DNA from: Solirubrobacteraceae bacterium
GTDB taxonomy: Bacteria; Actinomycetota; Thermoleophilia; Solirubrobacterales; Solirubrobacteraceae
Direction: 5' to 3'
Assembly (NCBI GenBank): GCA_050997675.1
Contig: JBPCQX010000217.1
Span: 1-17,004 of the forward strand
Length of the DNA stretch: 17,004 bases
Shown: positions 808 to 17,004 of the stretch, piece by piece
Layout of the letters: each line of letters opens with the position of its first letter
How positions within the stretch are numbered: position 1 is the first letter of the stretch
Made by a program: the position numbers and the translations under genes
The notes under the pieces: model-generated
Databases searched by the model: none
The model's input: the letters and a program-made list of their open reading frames with translations, nothing else
What the model was told of the DNA's origin: nothing

Positions 808-1554
808 GTGTCGACGCCCCGAAAGGACGGTTCCTTGAACACCACCCATCTTGAGACCAAGGAGCTGGTGTGTGCGGCGGACCCCTGGGATTTCGCGTTT
901 GACCCTGTGCACACCGCGGTGCTCGTCATCGACATGCAGAATGACTTCTGCGCGATCGGAGGCTACTGCCACGCCTACATGGCCAAGCAGGGGATCGGCG
1001 ACGCAGCAATTGCGCTGCTCCGCGAGCCGCTAGAGCCGCTTGCCAATGTGCTCGACGCCGCGCGAGTGGCTGGGATTCCGGTGATCTATACCGTCGAGGC
1101 GCATTGGCCTGATCTTGCGGACGTCCCTTCTAACAAAATGCAAGGCACCGTCAAGGTCGGAGCGCCGATCGGCAGTAACGGGCCGCTCGGCCGCCTACTC
1201 ATTCGGGGTGAGCGCGGGTCCGCGATCGTCGACGAGCTAGCTCCTCGCCCCGGAGAGCACGTGGTCCAGAAGCCGGGAAAGGGAGCCTTCTTTGCCACCG
1301 ATCTTGACCACATCCTGCGCAACCAGGGCGTTACGCACCTCATCATCACTGGCGTGACGACGGACTGCTGCGTGCTCGCGACCCGGATGGAGGCACGCGA
1401 CCGCGGTTACCACACGTTACAGCTCGAGGATTGCTGTGCAGCCACGCAACGAAAGAACCATGACGCTGTATTCGCAATGATCCGGACACATCCCGAGGCG
1501 TTCGGGCTCATGTCCTCCTCTCAGGCGCTCCTCTTCGCGCTCGGCGAGGCGTGA
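808..1554 (+). CDS. Isochorismatase-family cysteine hydrolase, biuret-amidohydrolase (BiuH)-like candidate
   Basis: 248-aa ORF with family motifs VLVIDMQNDF (catalytic Asp region), KPGKGAFFATDL (Lys) and ITGVTTDCCV (nucleophile Cys). From memory, the blocks HWPDLADVPSNK, GRLLIRGERGS and LQLEDCCAAT resemble biuret-hydrolase-type members. It sits 4 nt upstream of allophanate hydrolase. An alternative start is GTG 868, after AAGGAG at 859-864. Confidence 0.88.
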   Translation: MSTPRKDGSLNTTHLETKELVCAADPWDFAFDPVHTAVLVIDMQNDFCAIGGYCHAYMAKQGIGDAAIALLREPLEPLANVLDAARVAGIPVIYTVEAHWPDLADVPSNKMQGTVKVGAPIGSNGPLGRLLIRGERGSAIVDELAPRPGEHVVQKPGKGAFFATDLDHILRNQGVTHLIITGVTTDCCVLATRMEARDRGYHTLQLEDCCAATQRKNHDAVFAMIRTHPEAFGLMSSSQALLFALGEA

Positions 1555-1558
1555 GACG

Positions 1559-3394: not shown

Positions 3395-3456
3395 CGCCTG
3401 CCGCGAGTTGCGCGCGGTTTGGCGGTCAGTTGTTGACTGCACCCAGTGATTTCCCC

Positions 3457-3465
3457 AAGGAGGAG
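3457..3465 (+). promoter_or_regulatory. Shine-Dalgarno site for the permease
   Basis: AAGGAGGAG ends 4 nt before ATG 3470. This favours 3470 over the upstream ORF-track start at 3446. Confidence 0.6.
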
Positions 3466-3469
3466 AGCC

Positions 3470-4807
3470 ATGGCCACTACCAAGGAGCACGATCATCTCG
3501 GTGGTATCGAACTCGAGGCTGAGTTTGAGCGCGAGCCGGTTCCACCCGCCCACCGCAAATCGCTGCGAACGGTCGCCGCGGTCTGGTTCGGTTTCCCGAT
3601 GATCCTCACCTGCGCAGTCTTCGGTGGCGTCCTGTCGGCGCTGATGGGCTTTCAGCGCGCAGTGCTGGCAATCGTTGTCGGCAACCTCGTTCTATTCTGT
3701 TACGTTGGCGCTCTGAGCTACTTCGCCGGTCGGACAGGACGTAACTTCGCGTTGCAGGCAAAGCATGTATTTGGTGATCTTGGCTACTTGCTGGCGGCCG
3801 GATTTCTCTCCACGATCGTCATCGGCTGGTTCGCTTTCAACAGCGGCTTGACTGGGGCAACGATGAAGGAGACGTTCGGTTGGACAGAATGGCTGGTGAC
3901 CCTCCTGGCGTGCATCGGCTTCGTTCTAATCACATTCATCGGCGTACGCGCCCTAGCGGTGCTGGGTCTGATCGCCGCCCCCTTGTTCCTGGTTGTGGCC
4001 ATCATCGCGCTCATCATTGCATCCAAGACTGTGACGCTCTCCAGCCTCTGGAACTACAAAGGGGTGACATCTAACCCGGGCGCGTTCAGTCTCGGTGCTG
4101 GTATCACGCTTGTAGTGGCGACATTCGCGGACTCGGGCACGATGACCGCTGACTTCACGCGCTGGGCAAAGGACGGACGTCAGGCGGTTCTCGCTTCCGC
4201 CACTGCGTTCCCCCTCGGCAACTTCCTTGCGTTTATCGCGGGCGCGATTGTCGTTGCCATGGGCGCGATCAGCAACCCAGCCACCGCCGGCGGCAACTTC
4301 GTAGTGCTGTTGGCGAAAGGCCACGGCAGCGTCCTGACGGTACTGGCGGTCCTATTCGTCTTCATCAGCCTCGGGTCGGTTTCCTCGCATTGTCTGTACA
4401 ACGGTGCGGTCGGCTGGAGCAACCTCCTCCATACCCGCATGCGCGTCATGTGCATCATCCTGGGCGTGATCGGGACAATCGCCGCGACGGCCGGAGTTTG
4501 GAGCCACTTCTTGTCCTGGCTTAACATTCTTGGGGTCTTCGTACCCCCGATCGGCGGAGTAATTATCGCCCACCAGATCTTGGCAGCCGTCAAACCCGAG
4601 CGCGCGCTGGAGACCCTGGCGGTGCGACCGATCGCGTTCATGGCATACGCGTGCGGCGCGGCGGTGGCAGGCGTGTTGCACTACCTTGCGCCCCAGGGAG
4701 CAGAGGCACTCGCGGGCATGGTGATCGGCGCCGCCGCCTTCGTTGGGCTCACGCTCGCGATGCGACGGTCCCCGGTCGCCAGCGTGCCCGGCGTGCAAAT
4801 CAAGTGA
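3470..4807 (+). CDS. NCS1-type (purine-cytosine/CodB-like) permease
   Basis: About 445 aa from ATG 3470. The protein is almost entirely hydrophobic with about 12 predicted TM segments and a short polar N-terminus. Overall layout is typical of cytosine/purine/ureide permeases, and it is embedded in an amidohydrolase operon. The family call is from pattern only. Confidence 0.8.
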   Translation: MATTKEHDHLGGIELEAEFEREPVPPAHRKSLRTVAAVWFGFPMILTCAVFGGVLSALMGFQRAVLAIVVGNLVLFCYVGALSYFAGRTGRNFALQAKHVFGDLGYLLAAGFLSTIVIGWFAFNSGLTGATMKETFGWTEWLVTLLACIGFVLITFIGVRALAVLGLIAAPLFLVVAIIALIIASKTVTLSSLWNYKGVTSNPGAFSLGAGITLVVATFADSGTMTADFTRWAKDGRQAVLASATAFPLGNFLAFIAGAIVVAMGAISNPATAGGNFVVLLAKGHGSVLTVLAVLFVFISLGSVSSHCLYNGAVGWSNLLHTRMRVMCIILGVIGTIAATAGVWSHFLSWLNILGVFVPPIGGVIIAHQILAAVKPERALETLAVRPIAFMAYACGAAVAGVLHYLAPQGAEALAGMVIGAAAFVGLTLAMRRSPVASVPGVQIK

Positions 4808-4825
4808 ACGAGGAAGGCAAAACAA

Positions 4826-6307
4826 ATGCCCGCAAGCGCATCCGATCGAGGGCAGGAGCTTTGGCGGCTGAGCGCGCGCGCCCAAGCCAGGCTCGTCGCG
4901 CGCCACGAGGTGTCGCCAACCGAGGTCGTGCAGGCCGCTCTCGATCGGATGGAGCTCGTAGAGCCACAGATTCACGCATTCTCGACCTCAGCCGCTGAGG
5001 CGGCGCTTAAGGAGGCAGGCCGGCAAGAGGAGGCTATTGCCGCCGGTGTCGAGCTCGGACCGCTGACCGGAGTCCCGGTCGGGGTGAAGGATCTCATCGC
5101 GACGAAGGACCTGCGCACGACCGGCGGATCGGCGGCGTACCGTGACTTCGTTCCGGACGAAGACGATGTTGTCGTCGAGCGCTTGCGGGCCGCAGGTGCA
5201 ATCGTAATCGGTAAAACAAACGTACCGGAGTTCGGCTACAGCGGCGTCGGACACAACCCCGTGCACCAAACGACGAGGAATCCGTGGGACGTGCGGATGA
5301 CGTCCGGGGGTTCGAGCGCAGGCTCGGGCGCCGCGGTAGCCGCCGGCATCTGTCCGTTCGCCCTCGGGAGCGACGGCGGCGGGTCGGTCCGGATTCCCGC
5401 GGCACATTGCGGATTGGTAGGCGTCAAGGCGTCGATGGGGCGCGTGCCGCTCTACCCAGGATGCCGCGACGAGCGTTACCCCGGGCTCTCGAGTTGGGAG
5501 TCTCTCGAACATATTGGCCCGCTCAGCCGAACGATCGAAGACGCGGCGCTCATGCTGAGCATCATCGCCGGCCCTGACTCCCGCGACCGCCACAGCATCC
5601 CATGCGACGATGTCGAGTGGCTCGCCGCGGTGGAGCGGCCCGTGCGGGGGCTCCGGATCGCGTGGTGCCCTGATTTCGGCTACGTGGCTGTCGATCCAGA
5701 GGTGCGCCGTCTCGTCGCAGATGCTGTCCTGGTACTTGCCGACGCAGTCGGGGGTGAAGTCGAGGAATGCGCTCCCGGATGGGACGACCCATTCGACGCG
5801 TTCTGGGGGGTCGTCGCCCTGGACACGGACCTTCGCGGCATGCGCCAGCTCATCGGAGAACACCGGCACGAGATGACGCCACATCTCGTCGAGTTTCTTG
5901 AGAACCCGTGGACGGCCGAGCAGCTCACCGACGCGGTCCGCGGCCGAAAAGCGCTCGTCAACAAGATGTGGCAGTTCATGCAATGCTACGATCTATTGGT
6001 CACGCCGACGCTCACCGTCCCGCCGTTTCCGGTTCACATGCAGGGTCCGGAGAAGGTCGACGGACGGATAGTCAGTCCGTTTGCCTGGCTGTCGTTCACG
6101 CTTCCGATCAACCTCACCGGCCAACCAGCCGCCTCGGTACCTGCAGGCTGGACTGGCGATCGGCTGCCGGTCGGCATGCAGATCGTCGGCCGCCACTTAG
6201 CTGATGAAATGGTGCTGGCGGCAGCCGCGGCGTACCAGCGCTCGGCCGATTGGACCGCGCGCTGGCCCGAACTCGGGGAGACCCCAACCCCACGAGTCGT
6301 CCGATAG
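4826..6307 (+). CDS. Amidase-signature family amidase (substrate unknown)
   Basis: 493 aa with GVPVGVKDLIATKD (catalytic Lys), GGSSAGSGAAVAAG (Ser-cisSer) and GSDGGGSVRIPA. A GAGGAAGG-like RBS lies about 10 nt upstream of the ATG. Confidence 0.9.
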   Translation: MPASASDRGQELWRLSARAQARLVARHEVSPTEVVQAALDRMELVEPQIHAFSTSAAEAALKEAGRQEEAIAAGVELGPLTGVPVGVKDLIATKDLRTTGGSAAYRDFVPDEDDVVVERLRAAGAIVIGKTNVPEFGYSGVGHNPVHQTTRNPWDVRMTSGGSSAGSGAAVAAGICPFALGSDGGGSVRIPAAHCGLVGVKASMGRVPLYPGCRDERYPGLSSWESLEHIGPLSRTIEDAALMLSIIAGPDSRDRHSIPCDDVEWLAAVERPVRGLRIAWCPDFGYVAVDPEVRRLVADAVLVLADAVGGEVEECAPGWDDPFDAFWGVVALDTDLRGMRQLIGEHRHEMTPHLVEFLENPWTAEQLTDAVRGRKALVNKMWQFMQCYDLLVTPTLTVPPFPVHMQGPEKVDGRIVSPFAWLSFTLPINLTGQPAASVPAGWTGDRLPVGMQIVGRHLADEMVLAAAAAYQRSADWTARWPELGETPTPRVVR

Positions 6308-6371
6308 CCGACGGACAGAGCGGCCAGCCGAAAGGTCCTGGCATGCAGCGCCGACTGAACCAAAGCAGAGG

Positions 6372-7028
6372 TCAGATGCCCGAGCGGGCAGCCATCGTCC
6401 TGCGGTAGCCGTCGCGAACGATGCGCTCGGTCTCAGCGAAATGCTCAGTCAGCGCCCTGCCGAGAATGTCGGGCACGCCAGTCTCGTAAGCCTCCATCAG
6501 CGTGCGGTGCATCCACAACGCGTCATCCGGCGAACCGAAGCGCGTCACGAAGAGGCGGACGTATCGCTCGCTGGCCTGCCACAGCGACTCGAGTATGCGC
6601 TGGCCCCATGGGGTGGAGCCGGCCGCGATCAGCGCTCGATGCAGCTCGCGGTGGGCCTCCCAATACTCCACGGACCCGGTATCGCTCGCGGCCTTCTCCA
6701 AACACCCGAATGCCTTGCGGACGAGCGCAAGATCAGCGGCCGTTGAGCGCTCCACCGCTCGACGAGCAGTTGGAACCTCCACCATAGTTCGCAGCTCGTA
6801 GATTGCCGACAGCTCCTCGACTGTCACCGCCGCCACCTCCGGCTTACGTCGCGGTGGCGCGACGATGAGCCCTTCGATCTCTAGCTGGCGCAGCGCCTCG
6901 CGAATCGGAATGTGGCTGACCCCCAATTGCTCCGCCAGCGAGCGAACGTCAAGCGGTTCGCCGGGAGGCATCTCGCCGGTCAGGATCGCGTCGCGGAGAG
7001 CCGCCAAGACCGCCGCTACCGCACTCAT
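6372..7028 (-). CDS. GntR-family transcriptional regulator with FCD (FadR C-terminal) ligand domain
   Basis: The N-terminal wHTH reads ILTGEMPPGEPLDVRSLAEQLGVSHIPIREALRQLEIEGLIV, followed by an all-helical C-terminal domain. The ORF track starts at GTG 7070. ATG 7028 (MSAVAAVLAALRD...) gives the usual short N-terminus, so it is preferred here. Confidence 0.88.
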   Translation of the reverse strand: MSAVAAVLAALRDAILTGEMPPGEPLDVRSLAEQLGVSHIPIREALRQLEIEGLIVAPPRRKPEVAAVTVEELSAIYELRTMVEVPTARRAVERSTAADLALVRKAFGCLEKAASDTGSVEYWEAHRELHRALIAAGSTPWGQRILESLWQASERYVRLFVTRFGSPDDALWMHRTLMEAYETGVPDILGRALTEHFAETERIVRDGYRRTMAARSGI

Positions 7029-7229
7029 CGTCTCGATTCGGTTCAACCGCTTGCTCCGATTTATGGGCACAACCAGGATGCGATCAAATGATAGGTGTCA
7101 GGCGCCCGGACGTCCGCTCTGATGGTGACCAACGCGTTTTTGGCCGATGCGGAAGTCTGACTGCCCAACGGCCCCTTCAACACCTATCGCGATGGGAACG
7201 CCTCCCGCGCGGCCGTCCGTCCTTGCCGA

Positions 7230-7249
7230 CAGCCCGGCTGTCCGGGCTG
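7230..7249. repeat. GC-rich hairpin (8-bp stem, 4-nt loop)
   Basis: CAGCCCGG ctgt CCGGGCTG. It shares the 11-mer CAGCCCGGCTG with the hairpin at 7345-7361. Confidence 0.5.
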
Positions 7250-7283
7250 AGCGCGGAGGTTGACGGCGCACATCAGCTCCCTG

Positions 7284-7297
7284 GTTTGCCGGCAAAC
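7284..7297. repeat. Perfect 14-bp palindrome GTTTGCCGGCAAAC
   Basis: The sequence equals its own reverse complement. It lies in the non-coding spacer between the GntR gene and the toxin gene. Confidence 0.5.
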
Positions 7298-7344
7298 GAG
7301 GGAATCGACTCGCACTGACCGCAAGCTCCTTCGCGCGGAATCGG

Positions 7345-7361
7345 GGCCAGCCCGGCTGGCC
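7345..7361 (-). terminator. Hairpin about 30 nt downstream of the toxin stop; possible terminator of the TA pair
   Basis: GGCCAGC ccg GCTGGCC forms a 7-bp stem with a 3-nt loop. There is no clear U-tract, so terminator function is only inferred from position. Confidence 0.3.
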
Positions 7362-7390
7362 GACTGAAGGCGTGCCGGGTCGGTCGCCGG

Positions 7391-7685
7391 TCACGCGTCG
7401 CCGAGGATGTCATGCGCGCCGACCCGGCGCCAAACCACGTGGGGCTCGCCTGGCAGCACCTCGTCACCGTAGGCGAACGTCGCTCGGCCGTCCGGCGCGA
7501 ACGTGATCTCCCACACACCGGTTGAGCCCTGCACCCGCTTAACGCGCAGGCCAGGCGGGAATGACGGAGGATCGGCGCGCAACGCCGCGATGAACGTCGG
7601 CAGCATCTCCAAGAACGCCCGCTGAAGCTCGCGGCAAGCGGCGAAACTCGCGATCGAATCGCGGCAGCCGCTCGAATGTCGTCAC
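7391..7685 (-). pseudogene. RelE/ParE-superfamily toxin, apparently disrupted by a 1-nt frameshift
   Basis: A GTG at 7685 lies 2 nt after the antitoxin stop and opens VTTFERLPRFDREFRRLP..., which runs out of frame. The -1 frame continues ..ELQRAFLEMLPTFIAALRADPPSFPPGLRVKRVQGSTGVWEITFAPDGRATFAYGDEVLPGEPHVVWRRVGAHDILGDA to the stop at 7391. The span is 295 nt, which is 98 codons plus 1 nt. The junction is around 7627-7642. The joined sequence follows the RelE/ParE pattern: N-terminal F..D.kRL helix, then G..GvwE, then vv.rvG.Hd. Confidence 0.5.
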
Positions 7686-7687
7686 GT

Positions 7688-7918
7688 CTACTCGGAGCCT
7701 TCGTGCGGAAGGTCGTCCTCGGTGGCCGCGACGCGCTCCAGATGGGCGATGAACTTCTCGTCTCGAAACACGGCACCCTCGGTGTCGTTCAGCACGTCCG
7801 AGAGACACTCGCGCTCCGGTCGCAGCAGCAGGGAGCCGTCCGGGCGGCGCTCAACGACATCGTAGGAGCCAACGAGGCCCGGCTCTGAGATCCTGACCCG
7901 CTTGGGTGCGACAGCCAT
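7688..7918 (-). CDS. Putative antitoxin (76 aa, acidic C-terminus)
   Basis: ATG 7918 opens MAVAPKRVRISEPGLVGSYDVVERRPDGSLLLRPE...EDDLPHEGSE, and the stop is 2 nt before the toxin GTG. Only the size, position and acidic tail support the call. The family is not recognised. Confidence 0.45.
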   Translation of the reverse strand: MAVAPKRVRISEPGLVGSYDVVERRPDGSLLLRPERECLSDVLNDTEGAVFRDEKFIAHLERVAATEDDLPHEGSE

Positions 7919-8208
7919 GGCGACATTCTGGCAGGCCCTTGCAAGCCTGAGCGGACGCGTTCGCCACGTACCTGCTCTCGACGCCAGCCCGTCCTCCGGC
8001 TCACGAGGACGATGCGTTGGGCCGCTCGTCGGCGCGAGCGCCTGCTTTCGCCGATTCCAGCAGTCGTCGATCCAGAGCGCCTGGCTACCGGAACGGAAAC
8101 GAAGGCGACACACTCGAATCCCGCTCGGGAGACCGTCGCATCGCGATTCTGCGAGCGGTTGTCCTCGGGCACAGAGCGGAAAGATCGAGGACGCATCCGA
8201 TCCGCGAG

Positions 8209-9684
8209 TCATGGGTGATCCTCCAAGCCGTCGGGCGGCCGCGCGGCCCATCGCTCGGCAGGCCGCCCCGCGGTAAGCACGCGCTCGCGCTGTGCGCGGC
8301 CGGACGCCGCGAGCTGGTCAAGCGCGGCTTGGATGCGTTCGCCGGGCACGTTGCGACTGAGCAACCGCTGTATCTGTGTGCGTGTCATTCCGCCGGGGCG
8401 TTCGGTCAGCGCGGCGTGAAGCTGCTCGGCGAGCCCGTCGCGCAGCTCAGCGCTCACATCGGCGGCGGCCCGCCGGCTGCGTGCGGCCTGCTCGATCCAG
8501 CGCTGCCGCCGGCAGTCCTCGCAATAGGGACGGCGTCCGTCCGTCAGCTCCTTGCCGCATTCTCGGCATGTCGGCGGGAGCACAGGTTTGACGCGCGCCC
8601 GACTGCGCTTGCGGGCCGGCATCCGGTCGTCGAGCGCGGCGCGATGATGCGCCAGCGTCAGCGGTGTCCTGCTCGGCACGCGCGAGTGCGCGTGCCGGGC
8701 GAGCGTGTTGGCGGTCCACTCGACCACCGGCGCGACGTGCGAGCGCCAGACCTCGCAGGTTGAGGCGAGCTGCTCTCCGAGGCGCGGGGTGATGCGGCAC
8801 GATCCCTCCTGGGTCTCGACGAACTCGCGCGCTGAGAGCGTGCGCTGAGCCAGCATGGCGAGCACGTAGGCGTCTACCGCCGGCCGGGCGGCTTCCATGA
8901 GATCGAGCGCCAGCGATGCACGTCCCTCACGGTCGGTGTGGAAGATGCCGAGGCCGGGATCGAGCCCGGTCGCATGGCACGCGAAGATCGCCTCGGCTTC
9001 GAGCAGCGCATAGAGGTAGTTGAGGATCGCGTTCGCGGGGTTGCTGGCCGTGCGCGGCCCGCCCGTAATCAGCGAGGCGCGCCGGTCAAAGCGGTGCCAA
9101 TGCTCCGGCAGCTTCACTTGCTCTCGCCGCGAGAACCGGACCGGCAGCATCGACCACGTCCTCCAATAGACCTTCGCCGCGCCACGCTCGGCCGCGAGCA
9201 GCATCGCCGTTGCGTGACCGACCTCGATCTCGGTCAACGCGCAGTCGAGCGCGTCGCGCACGTACGGCGCGGCGCCCAGCTCGGCCGCGACGGCGGCCTG
9301 ACCTCGGACCTTCTCCGCCAGCACGTGTCGGGCGACCTCCAACCCCGCCGGACCGTCCGGGGCGAGTGCCTGCGCCCGCCGGAGCCCGGCGAGATCGGCG
9401 CCCGCCGCGATCGACGCCGCGACCAGCTCCCCGCTCGTATCCACGTGCACCAGCGCGGCGCCGGTGTCGCGCAGCCACCGCAGCGCATCAAGTGTGACGT
9501 AGCCCGAGCGGCCGATGATGACGAGCCGGCGCAGCTTGCTTGTGCGATGAAACCGGCGGGTGCGTCGCTGGCGGCCGAAGCCGTCGTCGACGATCAGGTG
9601 GCGGTGCTCGACGTGGATCTTGAGTCCGTAGCCGTGGGCTACGGCGATGCCGCTCCTGGGCGGCGGGGTACGCTGGGGCTGCAT
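8209..9684 (-). CDS. cas1: Stand-alone Cas1 homolog (casposase-like integrase) with C-terminal Zn-ribbon and winged-helix-like extension
   Basis: 491 aa. The N-terminal beta domain reads GYGLKIHVEHRHLIVDDG...RLVIIGRSGYVTLDALRWLRDTGAALVHVD. The Cas1 catalytic-domain motifs are LLAAERGAAKVYW (Glu), NPANAILNYLYALLEAEA, GLDPGLGIFHTD (His) and SLALDLMEAARPAVD (Asp/Glu). A CRECG-x11-CEDC motif spans aa 373-391 (8512-8568), and a helical MTRTQIQRLLS...IQAALDQLAASGRA tail follows (about 8260-8412). Confidence 0.9.
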   Translation of the reverse strand: MQPQRTPPPRSGIAVAHGYGLKIHVEHRHLIVDDGFGRQRRTRRFHRTSKLRRLVIIGRSGYVTLDALRWLRDTGAALVHVDTSGELVAASIAAGADLAGLRRAQALAPDGPAGLEVARHVLAEKVRGQAAVAAELGAAPYVRDALDCALTEIEVGHATAMLLAAERGAAKVYWRTWSMLPVRFSRREQVKLPEHWHRFDRRASLITGGPRTASNPANAILNYLYALLEAEAIFACHATGLDPGLGIFHTDREGRASLALDLMEAARPAVDAYVLAMLAQRTLSAREFVETQEGSCRITPRLGEQLASTCEVWRSHVAPVVEWTANTLARHAHSRVPSRTPLTLAHHRAALDDRMPARKRSRARVKPVLPPTCRECGKELTDGRRPYCEDCRRQRWIEQAARSRRAAADVSAELRDGLAEQLHAALTERPGGMTRTQIQRLLSRNVPGERIQAALDQLAASGRAQRERVLTAGRPAERWAARPPDGLEDHP

Positions 9685-10664
9685 GCGGAAGCCTTCTTTC
9701 CGTGTGCCGTGCCCGCGGGCCGTGCCGGCGGTCGCGCGGGCGATTTAGCAGAGGTCTTCGGACGGTGGTAGCGTCTGCTCGGCTGCGCAGACCGGGTTCT
9801 GTGCGCTGGGCGGGCGCTGGCCGGCGCACGCTCGCGACTGAGTTCAAGAAAGCCAAGCACGGTGAGCGTGTCCAGGCAAGCGGTGTTGAGCAGGTGGTCG
9901 AGTGTTACCGGCTCGAACATCGCGCCAATGTCACGGACGCCTGCAAACTCCGACTGGCGTTCTATGTAGTCGGCCATGTGGTGGTGATGGGCAAGACGGG
10001 CGTCCTCGAACGCCCGCTCGTCGAATGCGTCGAGTCCATCGAGCCCGGTGAGTTTTGCCTCGATCGTGCGTACCCATGCTTCGGGGCTGAGTCGGGCGCC
10101 TGCCGGGCCGACCGTGCGGCTTGAGCGTTCGGGGTCAAAGAGGCGGCGAGCGGCCAGAGTAAGTGCGTCCCGGTCTACAGTCCCGGCCGTTGAACCCTCC
10201 ACGATCGCGTGGATAAGCCGCGTGCGGTCGCTTCGGGTCATATCCGCACCGCCAGCGAACAGCTCGGCGATACGCCGCGCGCTATGGCGCGCCGGCTCCT
10301 TCGGGGTTGCGCGATAGCGGCCCCCATAGGTGCGCAGAGCGCGGCGGACCTGACGGACGGGGACGTACTCGGGACCGAAATACAGCCACAGACTTACCGG
10401 CACATTGCACAGCGTCGCGGTGCGCTGCACGCCTTTGTGCATCTGGTCTAGAAGCGCCAAGAAGAGCTGGAACTGGCGCTCGGGCCAGGTGCCTTGCTCC
10501 CTACCTCCGCGCCGCCCCGCTATCCCGTGCTTGTCCGGTTGATCCAATAGCCCGTCTCTCACAAGCCCGCGAACCCACGGGAGGGACCGAGGCAGGCCGG
10601 CGGCGTCCGCTGAGCTAAGCAAGTCATCGGCTGTGTAGCGGGACTGCTGCGAGCCGAGCACCAT
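9639..10664 (-). CDS. Hypothetical protein (341 aa) upstream of and overlapping cas1
   Basis: The first ~280 aa look protein-like (VPVSLWLYFGPEYVPVRQVRRALRTYGGRY, possible N-terminal HTH LPWVRGLVRDGLLDQP). The last ~60 aa are Pro/Arg/Ala-rich low complexity. The stop at 9639 overlaps the cas1 ATG (9684) by 46 nt. No family is recognised. Confidence 0.55.
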   Translation of the reverse strand: MVLGSQQSRYTADDLLSSADAAGLPRSLPWVRGLVRDGLLDQPDKHGIAGRRGGREQGTWPERQFQLFLALLDQMHKGVQRTATLCNVPVSLWLYFGPEYVPVRQVRRALRTYGGRYRATPKEPARHSARRIAELFAGGADMTRSDRTRLIHAIVEGSTAGTVDRDALTLAARRLFDPERSSRTVGPAGARLSPEAWVRTIEAKLTGLDGLDAFDERAFEDARLAHHHHMADYIERQSEFAGVRDIGAMFEPVTLDHLLNTACLDTLTVLGFLELSRERAPASARPAHRTRSAQPSRRYHRPKTSAKSPARPPARPAGTAHGKKASACSPSVPRRPGAASP

Positions 10665-10694
10665 TCAAATGATACCGAGATCAGCGTCCAGTTT

Positions 10695-10715
10695 CGACAC
10701 CGTTTGAAGGTGTCG
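10695..10715. promoter_or_regulatory. Inverted repeat CGACACC-N7-GGTGTCG in the divergent promoter region; candidate operator
   Basis: This is a perfect 7-bp inverted repeat with a 7-nt spacer. It lies between the minus-strand 341-aa gene (start 10664) and the plus-strand RHH gene (ATG 10728). Confidence 0.4.
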
Positions 10716-10727
10716 CAAACTGCGCGC

Positions 10728-10943
10728 ATGACATCAATAGCTCTCGACAGCTCACGCCCCGCCGCGGATGACTCGCGGATCGCCCTCCGTCTCGATCGGG
10801 AAGAACGAGATGGCGTCGCCCGCTTGGCGAAGGCTCACGACCGCACTCTGAGCAGCGAGGTTCGCCGAGCGATCAGGTTCTACGTCGCGCACTTCGATCT
10901 CGTAGAACGGACGCTGCGGGAGCAGCTCGGGGTGACCCGTTGA
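10728..10943 (+). CDS. Ribbon-helix-helix (CopG/Arc/MetJ-like) DNA-binding protein
   Basis: MTSIALDSS...RIALRLDREERDGVARLAKAHDRTLSSEVRRAIRFYV follows the beta-strand, helix, helix pattern of RHH repressors. The ORF track starts at TTG 10704, but ATG 10728 is preferred. It is the first gene of the plus-strand operon. Confidence 0.72.
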   Translation: MTSIALDSSRPAADDSRIALRLDREERDGVARLAKAHDRTLSSEVRRAIRFYVAHFDLVERTLREQLGVTR

Positions 10944-11104
10944 TGCGCGGCGGCAAGGCGAAGCGAGCAGCTCGCCAGCCGTCGAATCAACCGCGAGGCA
11001 TGCTCGACGTCGCCTCATTGACGGGCCGGCCGCAGGCGACAGCGAAGAAGCTCCAGCGGAAGAAGGCCCGGATCGCGGCTCGGGTCAAGGGCGTGACGCA
11101 GTGA
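10943..11104 (+). CDS. Small basic ORF (53 aa), below the ORF-track size cutoff
   Basis: MRGGKAKRAARQPSNQPRGMLDVASLTGRPQATAKKLQRKKARIAARVKGVTQ. Its ATG overlaps the RHH stop (TGATG at 10941-10945), and its TGA overlaps the next gene's GTG (GTGA at 11101-11104). It exactly fills the gap between two genes. Coding status is inferred only from this coupling. Confidence 0.35.
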   Translation: MRGGKAKRAARQPSNQPRGMLDVASLTGRPQATAKKLQRKKARIAARVKGVTQ

Positions 11105-11895
11105 GCGCACAAACGCCGCAGACTACGGGGCTCTCGCTCGATCAGATCACGCTCGATGAGCGCGCGTGGCCGCGTGACGCACTTGACGAGGATCGCGTCA
11201 AGCTGTTCGCCGAGCTGATCCGCGACGCGCGCGACGCCGCCGGTCACGGGCAGGGGTGGACGGACCCGCTGCCGCCGCTTGTAGTCGTCGCCGACGGCCA
11301 GGGCGGCTACCTGCTGGCCGACGGCCGGCACCGCTACGAGTCACGGCGGCGGCTCGGCACCGGCTTCGATCTCGTCTCAGTCGGGGTCTTCCAGCCGGAC
11401 GGGCGGGCGCCTGCCGACCGCGCGTACGAGCTGGCGCTGCTCTGCACGCAGGGAGCTAAGCCGCTTACGACCGCCGAGAAGCGCACGGCGATCCTGCGCC
11501 TGATCGCAGAGCGTCCAGAGCTGTCGGATCGGGCGATCGCCCGGCTCGTCGGAGTCGCGCACGCCACCGTCGGCAAGTACCGGGCCGGGGTGGTCAATTT
11601 GACCACCGAGCGCTCCGCGCCCGAGGAAGCAGACGATGACGGGCGCCAGCAGCCGGACGGCCGCAACGAGCCCCTGCGCTGGGAGGTCGCTGCCCGACGG
11701 CTCGCCGAGAATGTCGCCGAGCTACTCGCCTCGTGCCGGAAGCTATTCGGCGGTCCCAACTTCAAGTCCTCCGGCCGCGAACTCTATGACGCGCTCGCAG
11801 ACCTTTACGGGGACGAGGACGCACTCGCGGTCGTCGATGAGCTGAGCGCCGTTGTCGGCAACGCCCGCGCCCGCGCGAGGAAGGTCGCGGAGTGA
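11101..11895 (+). CDS. ParB/Srx-fold (ParB-like nuclease domain) protein with HTH
   Basis: 264 aa. The ParB N-terminal core reads LPPLVVVADGQGGYLLADGRHRYESRRRLG. An HTH-like segment follows: PELSDRAIARLVGVAHATVGKYR. Confidence 0.78.
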   Translation: MSAQTPQTTGLSLDQITLDERAWPRDALDEDRVKLFAELIRDARDAAGHGQGWTDPLPPLVVVADGQGGYLLADGRHRYESRRRLGTGFDLVSVGVFQPDGRAPADRAYELALLCTQGAKPLTTAEKRTAILRLIAERPELSDRAIARLVGVAHATVGKYRAGVVNLTTERSAPEEADDDGRQQPDGRNEPLRWEVAARRLAENVAELLASCRKLFGGPNFKSSGRELYDALADLYGDEDALAVVDELSAVVGNARARARKVAE

Positions 11896-11902
11896 CGTAG
11901 CT

Positions 11903-12442
11903 ATGCGCATAGAGAACGAGCCGCGCCCGGCGGGGCACGGCTCGATCAGACGATCTGGCCCTGAAAGTCTGGTCGGGATTGTACCGTCGAAGGCCGCGGC
12001 AGACAGCCAACGCGAAGAACAGCTCGTGAGCCTGCCGGCCGGCGCCGCAGCTTTAGAACACGTCCGGGCGCGGCGGGAGTCTCCGTGCCCGTACTGCGGG
12101 AGGCTTATCCACATCGGGGACCCGATCAGCAAGACGTATGTACGTGTCGGCTCGGGTAAGGGGTGGGCATACGGTCGCTGCTCCACGCTGTGGTGGCTTC
12201 ACGCGCGCGGCGCCAAAGACGCCGATGGACGGCGACGGAGCGAGCCTCCGCTGTCGGGCGCGGGTCGAGACGAGATCAAGGCTCGGGCGCTCCGCCGCTA
12301 CCGCACAGGGCGGCAGTACATCCCGCCCGGCGAGCTGCCGGCGTTCGAGGCCGCGGCCGAGCGCGTAGCTCAGCGCCGCCTGAAGGTCCGCGACGAACGT
12401 CGCCGACTATCTGCGGGAGGTCCGCTCGATGGCGCGGGCTAG
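11903..12442 (+). CDS. Hypothetical protein (~179 aa)
   Basis: ATG 11903 lies 7 nt after the ParB-like stop, whereas the ORF-track start at 11852 would overlap that gene. The sequence contains CPYCGRLIH and a basic helical C-terminus. No family is recognised. It overlaps the next gene by 14 nt. Confidence 0.55.
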   Translation: MRIENEPRPAGHGSIRRSGPESLVGIVPSKAAADSQREEQLVSLPAGAAALEHVRARRESPCPYCGRLIHIGDPISKTYVRVGSGKGWAYGRCSTLWWLHARGAKDADGRRRSEPPLSGAGRDEIKARALRRYRTGRQYIPPGELPAFEAAAERVAQRRLKVRDERRRLSAGGPLDGAG

Positions 12443-12908
12443 AGCGATCCGCTCGGCGAACTCGTTCGCGAAGCTGACGCGGAGCCAGCGCGCAACCTAT
12501 CAGCGCACGCTCGACACGCTGTCCGGCATGCGCCGCGGGCAGTCGCTTACCGCTGCGGCGCGTCACGCCGGCACGACCCCGCGCAGCGTGCGCAGGTACG
12601 CGGGCGCGACCGTCAAGCGGTCAGGCTCCCGCTACACGCTCGGGCGCGACCGCATGTACCGGCAGATGAACGTCCTCACGAACACGGGCATCGAGCCGGT
12701 GGCAGTCAGCCGGCGCGAATCAAAGACCCTCGGGCGCTACTGGAACGCCGTCGGGCGCTATCTGCACCACGGCGACAGCTCCGAGCTTTCACAGTTCCGC
12801 GGCGTCAGTGTCGGCGGCTACGAGCTTGAAACCGCCCTTGACGTGATCGACGTGCTGGCCGCCCGCGGCCAGCTTGACTTCGAGGACATCTACGAGCTGG
12901 CGGCATGA
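12429..12908 (+). CDS. Hypothetical protein with probable HTH
   Basis: 159 aa. The segment QSLTAAARHAGTTPRSVRRY resembles a helix-turn-helix. The gene ends in an ATGA overlap with the next gene (12905-12908). Confidence 0.6.
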   Translation: MARARAIRSANSFAKLTRSQRATYQRTLDTLSGMRRGQSLTAAARHAGTTPRSVRRYAGATVKRSGSRYTLGRDRMYRQMNVLTNTGIEPVAVSRRESKTLGRYWNAVGRYLHHGDSSELSQFRGVSVGGYELETALDVIDVLAARGQLDFEDIYELAA

Positions 12909-13819
12909 CCGAACACGGTCACAGTCAGACCGAACGCTGCACGATCTGCGCCACCACCACCGGCCGGTTCGAGCGCCACCACATCGCGCTACGCGCGAAT
13001 CATCCGGGCGCAACCGTCACGCTCTGCCGCGACTGCCATGCCGCCCAGACCGAGCGCCAGTATGACGCCGGGCTGATTAACCGTCGCAGCACGTCGCCCA
13101 GCGACCCGGCCCTCGCGCTGCTCCACCCGCTCACCGAGGGAATCGCCGGCATCTTCGCCGCCGTCTTCGCCGCTCAGGCTCGTCATGCCGACGCCGCCGA
13201 TCTTGGCATGCGCAACGAGTGCTCCCGTCGTCTCACCCTCCGACTGCTCGCCGTGACCTCTCCCGATCGTCCCGGCGCCCTCGGCCCGCGCCCGATCTTA
13301 AACGACCGCCGACACAGGCGCCGGCAGGAGCTAGTCACGCCGGTCCCGAGTGTCGACGAATTGCTCGAAGCGCTCGCAGCCGTCTACCCCGCGCTGGCGG
13401 CCGCGATCACCGGGACGCTGCCGGGCAGCGTCGAGCTGCTTGAAGGCTTCACCGTAGAGGACGCGGCCCGACTACTCTCACCGTCCGGCGCCCGCAGGCT
13501 TGCCCGCAACCTCGCCACGCTCCATGCTCACCCGCGCGCCGGAGAGCTTGAGGGCATCATCGAGCGCGACTTCAACGCGGCTTTGGCCACGGTCGCGCAG
13601 CTCACCACCGCCACCATGGCGGATGCGCTCGGAGAGCCCACGGAGATCGACTTCGAGCAGCTCGTCGGGACCGTGCGCGGCTTCTACGCGCTCGCCGAGC
13701 ACTGGATCGAGCTGATGTCCGCGCTCGCGTCAACCGCGCAGCCGGCGAACGCTCACGCAGCATTCGAGCGTTTCCTTCACCGGCGGGCGCCAGCGTCGAC
13801 CGACAGGCCCGCGGCGTGA
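12905..13819 (+). CDS. HNH endonuclease domain protein with a long helical C-terminal region
   Basis: 304 aa. The N-terminus CTICATTTGRFERHHIALRANHPGATVTLCRDCHAAQT matches the CxxC...HH...N...CxxCH HNH/zinc pattern. The remaining ~240 aa are Ala/Leu-rich and unassigned. Its stop overlaps the polB GTG (GTGA at 13816-13819). Confidence 0.78.
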   Translation: MTEHGHSQTERCTICATTTGRFERHHIALRANHPGATVTLCRDCHAAQTERQYDAGLINRRSTSPSDPALALLHPLTEGIAGIFAAVFAAQARHADAADLGMRNECSRRLTLRLLAVTSPDRPGALGPRPILNDRRHRRRQELVTPVPSVDELLEALAAVYPALAAAITGTLPGSVELLEGFTVEDAARLLSPSGARRLARNLATLHAHPRAGELEGIIERDFNAALATVAQLTTATMADALGEPTEIDFEQLVGTVRGFYALAEHWIELMSALASTAQPANAHAAFERFLHRRAPASTDRPAA

Positions 13820-16800
13820 GCGCCCAGCCTGCCACTTACCCGAGACAGCACCGCCGCGCGCTGGGCGCCGAGCCCGCGGCCAGGCTCACGACCACAAGCG
13901 CGGCCAGCGGGCCGACGCCCGATCATCTGCCGGTCGCGCTGCGCGCCTTCACCGAGACACCAGAGCCCGACCCCGACGCCGAGCAGAACAGCCGGAAGCC
14001 GGGCACGCGTGGCGGGCGCGCTCAGCGCGAGGACCGCTACGTGCTCGTGCTCGACACCGAGACCACCACCTGTCAGGCGCAGCGGCTTACGTTCGGGGTC
14101 TACCGCTACTACCGCACCCGCCGGACCGGCGGAAAGCTCTACTGCGTGGACGAGGGCATCTTCCACTCAGACGAGTTGCCCGGCGAAGATCCCGACGGCT
14201 ACCGGCTGCTGCGGAAGTACGCGAAGTACCGCGAACCCGCTGTCGATTGGACGCCCGGCGACTCGCTGACCGAGGACGCGGCGATCCAAATCCAGTTGCT
14301 GCCTGCCTCCGAGATGCGGGAGCTGCTGCATGCCGCCGCCTACCGCAACCGCGCGCTCGTGGTGTGTTTCAACCTGCCGTTCGACCTCTCCCGGCTCGCG
14401 ACCGACTGGACCGAAACCCGCGGCGGCAAGACAAGAAGGCAGCGGCAAGCATCGAGCTTCGCCGGAGGGTTCACGTTGCGCTACTTCGAGCACGACGGCA
14501 AGCCCAACCGCTACCGGCCCGAGCTGCGAATCAAGACGATCGACTCCAAGCGGGCGCTAAAACAGTTCAGCGCCCCGCACGAAATCGAGGACCGCGACCG
14601 CACCGCTGACGGGCAATCGTTCCGCGGACATCTGCTCGACCTGCGCACGATCGCGTTCGCGCTAACAGACAAAGGGCACTCGTTGGAGAGCGCCTGTGAG
14701 GCCTTCAAGGTCTCACACCACAAGGTGCTGGGTAACGCCGGATGCGAGCGGCGAGGAATACCAACCGGCAAGCAAAAAGAGCCGTACAAGAAGCAGGAAG
14801 CAGAGCACGGCAAGATAACCCCCGAATACATCGACTACTGCCGTGACGACGTGGCCGCCACCGCCAAGCTATACGAGGCCGTGGTGCGGGAGTACCGCCG
14901 GCACCCGATCAGCCTGCAAATCACCAAAGCGTTCTCACCCGCGTCGATCGGCAAGTCCTACCTCGACGCGATGGGCGTCCGCTCGCGCCGAGAGCGCCAA
15001 GCCGACTTCCCCCGGGACGTGCTCGGCAAGGCGATGAGCGCCTACTACGGCGGACGGGCCGAATGCCTCATCCGTCGCGTGGCGGTCCCGGTCGTCTATC
15101 TCGACTTCCTCTCTATGTATCCGACCGTGAACGCGCTGATGGGCTTGTGGCAGCACGTGACCGCCGCGCGGATCGAAGTGCAAGACGCCACCGCCGAGGT
15201 GCGAACGCTCGTCAGCACGATCGACCTCGAAGCGTGCCTGAACCCTGCGACGTGGCAGGAGCTGCCCGCGCTGGTGCAGATCAAGCCGGCCGACCATGTG
15301 CTCCCCGTCCGCGCCCGCTACGGCAACGCCCGCTCCTGGGGGATCGGCTCAAACCCGCTCTGGTCAGACGAGCCCATGTGGTACGCGCTCCCGGACGTGA
15401 TCGCCTCCAAGCTGATCACCGGCAAGACGCCCGAGATCATCCAGGCGATCAGACTCGTGCCCGTCGGCCGGCAGCGAGGGCTGCGATCGGTGAAGCTCCG
15501 CGGCGAGGTTGAGATCGACCCACTCCGTCACGACCTGTTCCGCGCGGCGATCGAACAGCGCCGGCAGCTTGACGATAAGACCGGGCCGACCGGCCGCTTT
15601 CTCAAGACGTTCGCGACCGGCACCGGCTACGGCATCTATGCAGAAATGAACCGCCGCGAGCTGCCTGGCGGACAGCGGCAACAGGTGACCGTCTACGGGC
15701 TTGGCGATAACCCGTTCACCGCGTCCGTGACCGCGCCCGAGCAGCCCGGCGCTTTCGCGTTCCCTCCGATGGCCGCGTGCATCACCGCCGCCGCCCGGCT
15801 CATGCTCGCCACCCTCGAAACGCTCGTCACCCAGGCCCGCGGCACTTGGGCGTTCTGCGACACCGACTCCATGGCCATCGTCGCCACGCAGCACGGCGGG
15901 CTCGTCCCATGCCCCGGCGGCGCCATGCGAGACTCCGACGGCCGCGAGAGCGTGCGGGCGCTCTCATGGGCGCAGGTGGACGAGATCGTGCAGCGGTTCG
16001 AGAGCCTCAACCCCTACGACCGCCAGATCGTGCCCGGCTCGGTGCTGGAGATCGAAGCCGAGAACTACGGTCCGGACGTAGAGCGCCGACAGCTTCACTG
16101 CTACTCGATCTCAGCCAAGCGCTACACGCTCTACAACCTCGACCAGCACGGGCAGCCAATCCTCCGCAAGATCACCGACGAGGACGACGCCGAGGATGAC
16201 GAGCCGGCAGACTCAGACGAGCCCACGGACACGCTCGACGGACTGCGCAAGCACTCCGAGCACGGACTCGGGCACCTGCTCAACCCCACCAATCCCGAGA
16301 ACGAGTCGCGGGACTGGATCGTCCAGCTCTGGCAGCACATCATCCGCATCGACGCGCCGCACCAAAGCGCCTCAGACAGCCAACCGAAGGCGCGCCGCAA
16401 GCCGGCACGAAACATGACAAGCCGGCGCCCGGCCCGCGGGCAGCGCTCGACGAGCACGGACTCCGACGAGCCCGACTGGCTCGACCGGCCCGCGCTGACC
16501 CGGACCACCATCACAAGCCCGCGGCTGCTCAAGCCCTCCACCGAACAGGGCCGCAAGCGCCCGGCCGCCGAACGCATCCGCCCCTACAACTTCCTGCTCG
16601 TCGCGCACGTCGCCAACCCCGGGCTCCAAAACATCCCGGAGCGCTTCCTGCTCATCGCGCCCTACGAATCAGACCCGCGCAAGTGGCGACGGTTGCCCTG
16701 GACCAACGCTTATGAGCCCGGCAGCCGGTACAAGATCGTCACCGACGACGGCGACGGCGAGCAGCTCGCAAGCGCGATCGACGGCCGGGTAATCGTCAAG

Positions 16801-17004
16801 ACCTACCGCAGCGTGCTCGCCGACCACCGAACCCACCCCGAAGCAAAGAGCCTCGGACCCGACGGACAACCCTGCAACCGCGCCACCGTGGGTCTGCTAT
16901 CCCGCCGGCCCGTCAAAGCAGCCGCGATCCACCACATCGGCAAAGAGTCCAACAAGATCGAAGAAGCCGCCTCCGGGCTCGTGACCGACCTCGATGACGC
17001 GCTC
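13816..17004 (+). CDS. polB: Family-B DNA polymerase with 3'-5' exonuclease domain; partial, continues past the window end
   Basis: The frame is open for 1063 codons from GTG 13816 to the window edge. It is absent from the ORF track only because it has no stop. The motifs are: ExoI VLVLDTETT (D80, E82), ExoII VCFNLPFD (aa 186-190), ExoIII YCRDD (aa 341-345), SAYYGGRAEC, motif A YLDFLSMYPT (D430), motif B KTFATGTGYGIYAE (K597), motif C AFCDTDSMAIV (D682, D684) and KxY SAKRYTLY (K768). Confidence 0.9.
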   Translation, partial: MSAQPATYPRQHRRALGAEPAARLTTTSAASGPTPDHLPVALRAFTETPEPDPDAEQNSRKPGTRGGRAQREDRYVLVLDTETTTCQAQRLTFGVYRYYRTRRTGGKLYCVDEGIFHSDELPGEDPDGYRLLRKYAKYREPAVDWTPGDSLTEDAAIQIQLLPASEMRELLHAAAYRNRALVVCFNLPFDLSRLATDWTETRGGKTRRQRQASSFAGGFTLRYFEHDGKPNRYRPELRIKTIDSKRALKQFSAPHEIEDRDRTADGQSFRGHLLDLRTIAFALTDKGHSLESACEAFKVSHHKVLGNAGCERRGIPTGKQKEPYKKQEAEHGKITPEYIDYCRDDVAATAKLYEAVVREYRRHPISLQITKAFSPASIGKSYLDAMGVRSRRERQADFPRDVLGKAMSAYYGGRAECLIRRVAVPVVYLDFLSMYPTVNALMGLWQHVTAARIEVQDATAEVRTLVSTIDLEACLNPATWQELPALVQIKPADHVLPVRARYGNARSWGIGSNPLWSDEPMWYALPDVIASKLITGKTPEIIQAIRLVPVGRQRGLRSVKLRGEVEIDPLRHDLFRAAIEQRRQLDDKTGPTGRFLKTFATGTGYGIYAEMNRRELPGGQRQQVTVYGLGDNPFTASVTAPEQPGAFAFPPMAACITAAARLMLATLETLVTQARGTWAFCDTDSMAIVATQHGGLVPCPGGAMRDSDGRESVRALSWAQVDEIVQRFESLNPYDRQIVPGSVLEIEAENYGPDVERRQLHCYSISAKRYTLYNLDQHGQPILRKITDEDDAEDDEPADSDEPTDTLDGLRKHSEHGLGHLLNPTNPENESRDWIVQLWQHIIRIDAPHQSASDSQPKARRKPARNMTSRRPARGQRSTSTDSDEPDWLDRPALTRTTITSPRLLKPSTEQGRKRPAAERIRPYNFLLVAHVANPGLQNIPERFLLIAPYESDPRKWRRLPWTNAYEPGSRYKIVTDDGDGEQLASAIDGRVIVKTYRSVLADHRTHPEAKSLGPDGQPCNRATVGLLSRRPVKAAAIHHIGKESNKIEEAASGLVTDLDDAL

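Follow-up and report, generated by a model that had tools for sequence, protein, structure and literature searches.

A probable family-3 casposon in a Solirubrobacteraceae genome and the mobile bacterial family to which it belongs

Introduction

Casposons, which are transposons that move by means of a Cas1 integrase and are copied by a DNA polymerase of their own, have been proposed as the origin of the CRISPR adaptation machinery and, to our knowledge, all biochemical and in vivo work on them so far has been on the archaeal families 1 and 2. The literature that we searched lists about eight elements of family 3 and calls bacterial casposons rare, and one paper mentions an unpublished broader survey. 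Here we describe a 17,004-bp stretch of DNA (the window), which is the entire contig of a metagenome-assembled genome (MAG) from a member of the Solirubrobacteraceae (Actinomycetota, Thermoleophilia) and which carries genes for a Cas1 homolog (cas1) and a family-B DNA polymerase (PolB). The host is assigned to this family because of the NCBI names attached to the Cas1 and PolB proteins of the window. An earlier note on this DNA had proposed a casposon-type Cas1 and PolB module in a high-GC bacterium, outside any CRISPR context. This proposal stands, with Cas1 falling in a casposase clade, and the window very probably contains the larger part of a family-3 (bacterial) casposon that is integrated into the genome of a member of the Solirubrobacteraceae.

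The closest described systems are the family-3 casposons AceAut-C1, StrAlb-C1, NitAL212-C1, and HenMar-C1 (PMC4046053, PMC4779613), which resemble the window in their bacterial hosts and intergenic insertion and in a common gene set of Cas1, PolB, HNH, and helix-turn-helix (HTH) proteins. The Cas1 of AceAut-C1 also has C-terminal zinc-binding and HTH-like segments, as does the Cas1 of the window. HypCY54-C1, which is also in family 3, is recorded as carrying a ParB-family protein and, as cargo, a serine resolvase (PMC4779613), and NitAL212-C1 shares with the relatives of the window a 14-bp target-site duplication (TSD) and a terminus that begins GGG(G/A)TA. The window differs from published family 3 in its host, since Solirubrobacteraceae and Thermoleophilia are new, and in two orphan open reading frames (ORFs) after cas1 that are specific to this copy.

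Family-2 casposases, such as those of Aciduliprofundum boonei and Methanosarcina mazei (PDB 6OPM), share the Cas1 fold and catalytic residues with the window protein (E=2.4e-21 for 6opm; 26–29% identity to family-2 casposases), and family-2 casposons have a similar core (Cas1, PolB, HNH, two HTH proteins) and TSDs of 14–15 bp. By contrast, their hosts are archaeal, their Cas1 proteins form a separate clade, and their other accessory proteins are different; they also often target tRNA genes, whereas the window has no tRNA. Cas1–Cas2 adaptation uses a homologous integrase with the same catalytic residues and a staggered integration that duplicates a short target (the CRISPR repeat), but what it inserts is a spacer, whereas a casposon inserts its own 10–17-kb element. 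Pipolins and Polintons, like the window, combine their own family-B polymerase with chromosomal integration, yet neither uses Cas1. Polintons are eukaryotic and have a retroviral-type integrase. Pipolins depend on tyrosine recombinases together with att repeats (PMC11551731). Their piPolB islands often lie at a tRNA gene. A pipolin was considered for the window and rejected, since the window has no recombinase and no tRNA and has Cas1 instead.

Results

Cas1 of the window groups with family-3 casposases

The cas1 gene (8209–9684, – strand) encodes a protein of 491 aa with the Cas1 core at residues 1–310. The protein matched Pfam Cas_Cas1 (E=1.6e-39) and exceeded the cut-off of the generic TIGR00287 cas1 model. 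Motifs containing the catalytic Glu, His, and Asp, which had led the earlier note to call a 491-aa Cas1, lie at residues 165–174, 246–251, and 258–268. Within these, E166, H249, and D261 are invariant or nearly so among 53 aligned Cas1 and casposase sequences, so that the call is confirmed by both the Pfam match and the conserved residues. The C-terminus contains segments that are zinc-ribbon-like (DZR_2, E=2.5e-4) and winged-helix-like (SelB winged helix, E=0.024).

We compared this protein by blastp with a Cas1 reference set taken from the supplementary file 3 alignment of Krupovic 2014 (PMC4046053). The highest scores were obtained with family-3 casposases, namely AceAut-C1 (201 bits, 44% identity), Saccharopolyspora spinosa (196 bits), StrAlb-C1 (174 bits), NitAL212-C1 (129 bits), and HenMar-C1 (119 bits), and identity to the first three was 35–44%. 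Scores were lower for casposases of family 2 (91–112 bits) and family 1 (67–79 bits), and CRISPR-associated Cas1 proteins reached at most 51 bits in partial alignments. No CRISPR subtype-specific NCBIfam Cas1 model reached its cut-off (the best, cas4g_cas1g, 112 bits versus 560; I-C, 93 versus 385), and only the generic model passed.

In a neighbour-joining tree (Poisson distances, 311 columns, 200 bootstraps), window Cas1, 26 of its relatives, AceAut-C1, StrAlb-C1, and S. spinosa formed a clade in 194 of the 200 bootstraps, and a clade with all five family-3 references, NitAL212-C1 and HenMar-C1 being added, was recovered in 155. The published family-3 proteins were nested among the new sequences. 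A single clade of all casposase families appeared in only 15 of 200 bootstraps. Because of the blastp ranking and the bootstrapped clade, we place window Cas1 in family 3, and judged by its sequence it is a family-3 casposase. The earlier note had asked where Cas1 falls in a phylogeny and had left room for a new lineage; the protein lies outside the CRISPR-associated clades and groups with published family-3 casposases, so that the element extends family 3 by one member, from a host lineage new to the family, and is not a new kind of system.

PolB of the window is a family-B polymerase with a proofreading exonuclease

The polB gene (13816–17004, + strand) is truncated by the end of the contig. 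Its frame has no stop codon from 13552 onward, a GTG at 13816 is its sole start codon, and 1063 codons, of about 1185 expected, lie between this start and the contig end. About 120 residues are missing from the window, judging by the complete ortholog in the related locus L004 (fetched loci carry numbers preceded by L), which is 73% identical and has 1185 aa; its C-terminus consists of an HTH-like segment and a Cys-rich tail. We found no sequence similarity between the C-termini of Cas1 and PolB, and the idea of a shared domain was dropped.

All exonuclease and polymerase motifs had been reported in a PolB of more than 1063 aa, and an alignment of 20 sequences bears this out. The exonuclease residues (Exo I, D80/E82; Exo II, N186/D190; Exo III, Y341/D345) and the polymerase residues (A, D430/S433/Y435; B, K597/Y605/G606; C, D682-T683-D684; KxY, K768/Y770) are invariant in it. 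An AlphaFold model with a predicted local distance difference test score (pLDDT) of 72 also matched family-B polymerases with a probability of 1.00. The only Pfam match of PolB, in 17 of 20 members, was DNA_pol_B_2 (E=1.3e-8 for the window protein), which is the Pfam model for organellar and viral polymerases of the protein-primed type. A PolB profile had no match among PDB sequences. In the fold search phi29 polymerase, Pol alpha, Pol zeta, and archaeal PolB were matched about equally, with the highest target-normalised TM-score, about 0.5, going to phi29 polymerase.

The cas1–polB arrangement is conserved among bacterial relatives

For a wider survey, the PolB profile was searched against one genome per species, and relatives were found in 460 species-representative bacterial genomes. 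The earlier note had described casposons as few and mostly archaeal, which is true of the literature but does not fit this number. We fetched 80 PolB-anchored loci from GTDB species-representative genomes (L005–L084), and these span Actinomycetota, Acidobacteriota, Chloroflexota, Eremiobacterota, Gemmatimonadota, and other phyla. A cas1 gene lies divergent from polB and 2–5 kb upstream of it in 75 of the 80 loci, and in four of the other five the locus is truncated at the end of its contig. In relatives that lack cas1, polB is not a conserved chromosomal gene. The only informative exception to the linkage is L051 (9127–17110), where the gene for a 159-aa protein, polB, and a canonical right terminus are present and there is no cas1 within 10 kb upstream.

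About 69 of the 80 loci, from several phyla, encode a homolog of this 159-aa protein either immediately upstream of polB or separated from it by a single gene. Locus L004 is syntenic with the window gene for gene, and its Cas1 is 77% and its PolB 73% identical. The layout had not been recognised before, but the same order, with a gene for a protein of about 340 aa preceding cas1 on one side and the 159-aa HTH protein, HNH, and polB genes on the other, recurs in relatives. This skeleton is also seen in a canonical acidobacterial element (L039), in which the terminal inverted repeats (TIRs) enclose a cargo gene for a large serine recombinase of 510 aa (13784–15316, –). In L002, L003, L085, L086, and L168 (ENA assembly ERZ25039489), polB is split by frameshifts and insertion sequence (IS) elements lie in or next to the modules; this could be real decay or errors of long-read assembly.

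Relatives are bounded by inverted termini and 14-bp target-site duplications

Self-comparison of the loci revealed inverted repeats of 17–509 bp that bound the module in relatives. At their start is a conserved terminus, 5'-GGGATAGGAGATAG...AAAACTGC. A weight matrix built on it found at least one terminus in 63 of the 80 loci and, in 36, two termini in the correct orientation, compared with five matches in 756 kb of shuffled control sequence. The remaining 17 loci, including those of the cultured actinomycetes L008 and L010, are without the canonical motif. Among 29 two-ended elements, perfect 14-bp TSDs were found in 26 and 15-bp TSDs in two, with none in one. Element lengths are 10.9–17.5 kb, and both the duplicated sequences and the insertion sites vary between loci. 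From the inverted termini and 14-bp TSDs in the relatives it follows that this is a true transposon family and that it is mobile. In NitAL212-C1, a published member of family 3, the terminus is similar (GGGGTATGTTAAC...CCCAAACGCCG) and the TSD is likewise 14 bp long.

Within the duplicated 14-mer, TTGAC abuts the terminus in 17 of 29 elements, in either orientation (for example, L007:1681–1694 and L039:3239–3252), which hints at a preference in the choice of target. The –35 promoter hexamer has TTGAC as its core. Head-to-tail pairs with exactly one 14-bp unit between facing termini occur in L070 (15102/15117) and L079 (15855/15870), and a further head-to-tail pair in L053 (10130–10147) has a separation of 16 bp. 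Such pairs indicate repeated insertion at a regenerated target, and tandem insertions that share one TSD have been published for Methanosarcina casposons (PMC4779613). Several other insertions abut an older terminus-like remnant.

In some loci, a few hundred bp of the 3' end of polB recur in inverted orientation on the cas1 side. This was seen in L085 (3196–3573 versus 15934–16311), L087 (4408–5246), L034 (3282–3703 versus 12542–12963), and L069 (6526–6984 versus 18491–18949). Each such block is either a TIR so long that it extends into coding sequence or what is left of a neighbouring element in head-to-head orientation. The window has no inverted polB 3' end left of cas1, unlike these four loci.

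The ends of the window copy

On the right, the contig stops inside polB and the end of the element lies beyond 17,004. In an attempt to extend the contig, the only other sequences encoding its Cas1 and HNH proteins were short Logan contigs of SRR33880237 (3.3 kb and 1.1 kb), from which the right end was not recovered. On the left, the earlier note had started the element at 8209, the last base of cas1. The element probably reaches further, to at least 7391, because cas1 is coupled at its stop codon to a 174-aa ORF and a 73-aa ORF is next on the same strand. The left end is expected in 7071–7390, an interval that the earlier note had also proposed. The element would thus span from about 7.1–7.4 kb to beyond 17,004, with a predicted total length of roughly 10–11 kb.

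The best weight-matrix match in 7071–7390 was ATGATAGGTGTCAG at 7088, giving a candidate left terminus at 7088–7117 (+ strand; ATGATAGGTGTCAGGCGCCCGG...) with weak likeness to the family terminus GGGATAGGAGAYAG. Its score was equalled by 3–4% of real 320-bp windows and by 0.8–3.4% of shuffles (p ~0.03). If 7088 is correct, the 14–15 bp before the left terminus are CAGGATGCGATCAA. This candidate end lies 17 bp upstream of the start codon of a GntR/FCD regulator gene and could affect the promoter of that regulator. Inverted-repeat searches of the window, L002, and L004 returned only GC-rich matches at chance level, and a search of the window for GGGATAGGAGATAG with up to three mismatches returned one match (1237–1250), also at chance level. 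In the closest relatives, homology to the window extends at most to the cas1 stop codon. Between the last ORF of the element and the GntR gene, the sequence at 7205–7362 contains a palindrome with a 12-bp stem at 7278–7303 and three copies of CAGCCCGGCTGTCCG (at 7205, 7230, and 7348), which could be subterminal repeats or a terminator.

Other genes of the element

Both operons of the element diverge from a 39-bp region. The leftward one contains genes for a 341-aa protein, Cas1, and the two orphan ORFs, and the rightward one encodes, in order, a ribbon-helix-helix (RHH) protein, a ParB-like/HTH protein, a Zn-ribbon-like ORF, the 159-aa HTH protein, the HNH protein, and PolB, with successive genes overlapping by 4–44 nt. 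The earlier note had put cas1 and polB 4.2 kb apart on opposite strands, with HNH, ParB-like, HTH, and RHH genes between them. Measured between gene starts, the distance is 4.1 kb, and all four kinds of gene are present, the HNH gene by its motif and a weak match (E=0.005). Also in agreement with the earlier note, we found no repeat-spacer array within the 17 kb and no cas2, cas4, or effector gene among the element ORFs in searches of Pfam, NCBIfam, PHROGs, and PADLOC. These searches returned no recombinase gene either.

The 341-aa protein (9639–10664, –) is encoded by the first gene of the cas1 operon, the 3' end of which overlaps the cas1 start. Homologs are encoded directly upstream of cas1 in L004 (68% identity), L008, L009, L022, L031, L071, L073, and L077, and such a gene precedes cas1 in a subset of the actinobacterial and Chloroflexota loci. 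The protein had no match in Pfam, NCBIfam, PHROG, PADLOC, or PDB. Between the operons, the 39-bp intergenic region (10665–10703) contains a promoter-like site (10697–10669, –) and a partial palindrome, TTCAAA..TTTGAA (TTCAAATGATACCGA / TCGACACCGTTTGAA), that spans 10664–10708. From its sequence, this region is a probable promoter and operator for both operons, and the palindrome with the promoter-like site is a candidate operator for the RHH protein. The latter (10704–10943, +) matched a PHROG Arc-like repressor (E=8.4e-6) and, weakly, Pfam Arc and RHH_1; it is conserved in L004, L002, L085, L087, and L009 and is likely, judging by these matches, to be a repressor of the element.

The next gene (11101–11895, +) encodes a ParB-like N-terminal domain (PHROG 1033, ParB-like partition protein, E=1.5e-16) followed by an HTH with weak Pfam matches at residues 118–162. 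The protein is 74–75% identical in L003 and L004 and is found in a subset of distant loci. It is followed by a 196-aa ORF (11852–12442, +) that may contain a zinc ribbon (weak match to Zn_ribbon_Com, E=0.043) and is poorly conserved, L004 having a non-homologous 239-aa gene in this position. The 159-aa core protein (12429–12908, +) has an N-terminal HTH and an uncharacterised beta/alpha domain. Its AlphaFold model (pLDDT 80) gave no significant PDB fold match and only partial HTH similarities. The 304-aa protein (12905–13819, +), the gene of which overlaps both neighbours by 4 nt, has an N-terminal HNH-type motif (CTIC..RHH..N..CRDCH) at residues 12–45 with weak model support (NCBIfam IscB HNH region, E=0.0054) and homologs in L004, L013, L085, L169, and L068. 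This protein and the conserved 159-aa HTH protein are the candidates in the window for the HNH and HTH components of the family-3 gene set.

Downstream of cas1, the 174-aa orphan ORF (7688–8212, –; 187 aa from an upstream ATG at 8251) has an ATG that overlaps the cas1 TGA as ATGA at 8209–8212, in agreement with the gene call in L001. The 73-aa orphan ORF (7391–7612, –) follows 75 bp later, downstream of the cas1 operon, and is probably cargo. Neither ORF had a match in Pfam, NCBIfam, PHROGs, or PADLOC, or a homolog in the fetched loci except in L001, which is the same sequence. By eye, the two resemble a small toxin-antitoxin-type pair.

The host flank

The region at 808–7070 (no strand assigned) encodes an isochorismatase, an allophanate hydrolase, a cytosine/purine-type permease, an amidase, and the GntR/FCD regulator, as identified by Pfam, and is treated as host DNA outside the element. 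These matches support the earlier statement that the element sits beside a catabolic operon, and the cluster resembles one for urea-carboxylate or amide catabolism. It is present without any cas1 in unrelated metagenome loci (L115, L136, L163). The GC content of the flank is 0.61–0.67, compared with 0.65–0.72 in the element region. Positions 6459–9783 are reproduced at 100% identity in L001, an independent Logan assembly, and because L001 shows the identical junction, the host/element junction is not an assembly chimera. A search for an empty site through the amidase in 80 metagenome loci gave best matches that were 64–67% identical with a GntR gene that was not syntenic, so that no breakpoint was mappable. 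Scans of the window for tRNA and Rfam families had no match.

Discussion

Weighing the alternatives

Several observations weigh against a complete and typical family-3 casposon in the window. No TIR or TSD was demonstrated for this copy, the right end of which is off the contig, and the weight-matrix score at 7088 is about 2.4 compared with 12–44 for real termini. Local alignment of the terminal block of L004 and L085 with the left flank of the window was no better than with shuffles. The closest relatives (L002–L004, L085–L087, L168) have messy ends, with IS insertions, extra polB 3' fragments, and frameshifted polB, and the subclade of the window may be partly decayed or have different termini. 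Published family-3 PolBs are described in the literature as RNA-primed (PolB3-like) and as branching within family-2 casposon PolBs, yet the window PolB matches only DNA_pol_B_2, a model of the protein-primed type. Lastly, the Cas1 tree is a neighbour-joining and not a maximum-likelihood tree.

The points about the ends can also be read as those of a casposon that is family 3 by descent but is immobilised or decaying, its cas1-side terminus lost or mutated, and that persists as a non-mobile island, possibly still expressed. We regard this as unlikely, though it is the alternative to be taken most seriously. It would account for the lack of a recognisable left terminus within 8.2 kb of cas1, for homology between close relatives stopping at or before the cas1 stop codon, and for the frameshifted polB and IS insertions of the relatives in ERZ25039489, and archaeal casposons with a second copy in decay have been described (PMC4046053, PMC4779613). 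However, the core ORFs are all intact with their catalytic residues kept and tight translational coupling, there is a weak candidate terminus at 7088, and the 17 of 80 loci without the canonical motif (L008 and L010 among them) make divergent termini as likely as lost ones. If the module were instead part of a CRISPR-Cas adaptation system, its cas2, array, and effectors would have to lie past the contig end; the region past 17,004 is unseen and generic Cas1 models do match, but this explanation is effectively refuted by the preference of Cas1 for casposases (201 bits) over CRISPR Cas1 (at most 51 bits), by the failure of every subtype-specific model to pass its cut-off, and by the syntenic L004 and the roughly 80 related loci, which have transposon ends and no arrays (L004 also has no cas2). 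In addition, the neighbours of cas1 are genes of the element on one side and, on the other, orphan ORFs followed by host catabolic genes. The organellar/viral Pfam model as the only match of PolB, and phi29 polymerase as its highest TM-score (about 0.5), would fit some other PolB-carrying mobile element in which the Cas1 gene is incidental, such as a pipolin-like island, a protein-primed linear plasmid, or a provirus. This is very improbable given that cas1 is linked to polB with a fixed geometry in 75 of 80 loci and that the ends of relatives have the 14-bp TSDs typical of Cas1-type integration; nor does the window have tyrosine or serine integrase, capsid, packaging, or conjugation genes in searches of Pfam, NCBIfam, and PHROGs, or the element a match in the plasmid or phage collections.

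How the element would move

A family-3 casposon would be expected to move by steps that we infer from the architecture of the relatives and from published casposase biochemistry (PMC6977970, PMC6614799, PMC10359463). Cas1, acting as the casposase, would bind the inverted terminal repeats of the element and link their 3' ends to target DNA in which the two strands are cut 14 bp apart, and gap repair would then yield the 14-bp TSD. PolB would replicate the element. The HNH nuclease and the 159-aa HTH and ParB-like proteins are candidates for end processing, recognition of ends or target, and regulation.

Breadth of the family and its significance

For the window itself, these results are a confirmation and a classification, and the more notable by-product is the apparent abundance of the family in soil bacteria. 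We found no link between casposons and Acidobacteriota or similar soil phyla in the literature searched, although publications beyond it are possible, and the breadth and regularity of the family may be unreported. More tentatively, and with rather less than even confidence, we suggest that the window is one sample of a large family-3 radiation in soil bacteria, not described in the literature searched, that is characterised by a shared terminus, a strict 14-bp TSD, a TTGAC preference, and head-to-tail arrays. In the Solirubrobacterales subclade to which the window belongs, the termini may be of a different, longer kind and may take in the 3' end of polB.

With the window copy, in which the Cas1 and PolB genes are intact except that PolB is cut by the contig end, family 3 gains a new host lineage. 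The relatives of this copy provide a comparison set in which dozens of bacterial genomes, some of them from cultured strains, have elements with clean, conserved ends and 14-bp duplications, and their terminus signature can be used to delimit such elements and to guide in vitro integration assays. If there is such a radiation, with its subclade-specific termini, bacterial casposons would be common and not rare, and there would be many bacterial systems, some of them cultured (Tunturiibacter, with T. psychrotolerans at L036; Streptomyces, with S. luteireticuli at L010; and Tsukamurella), in which to study how Cas1 integration led to CRISPR adaptation.

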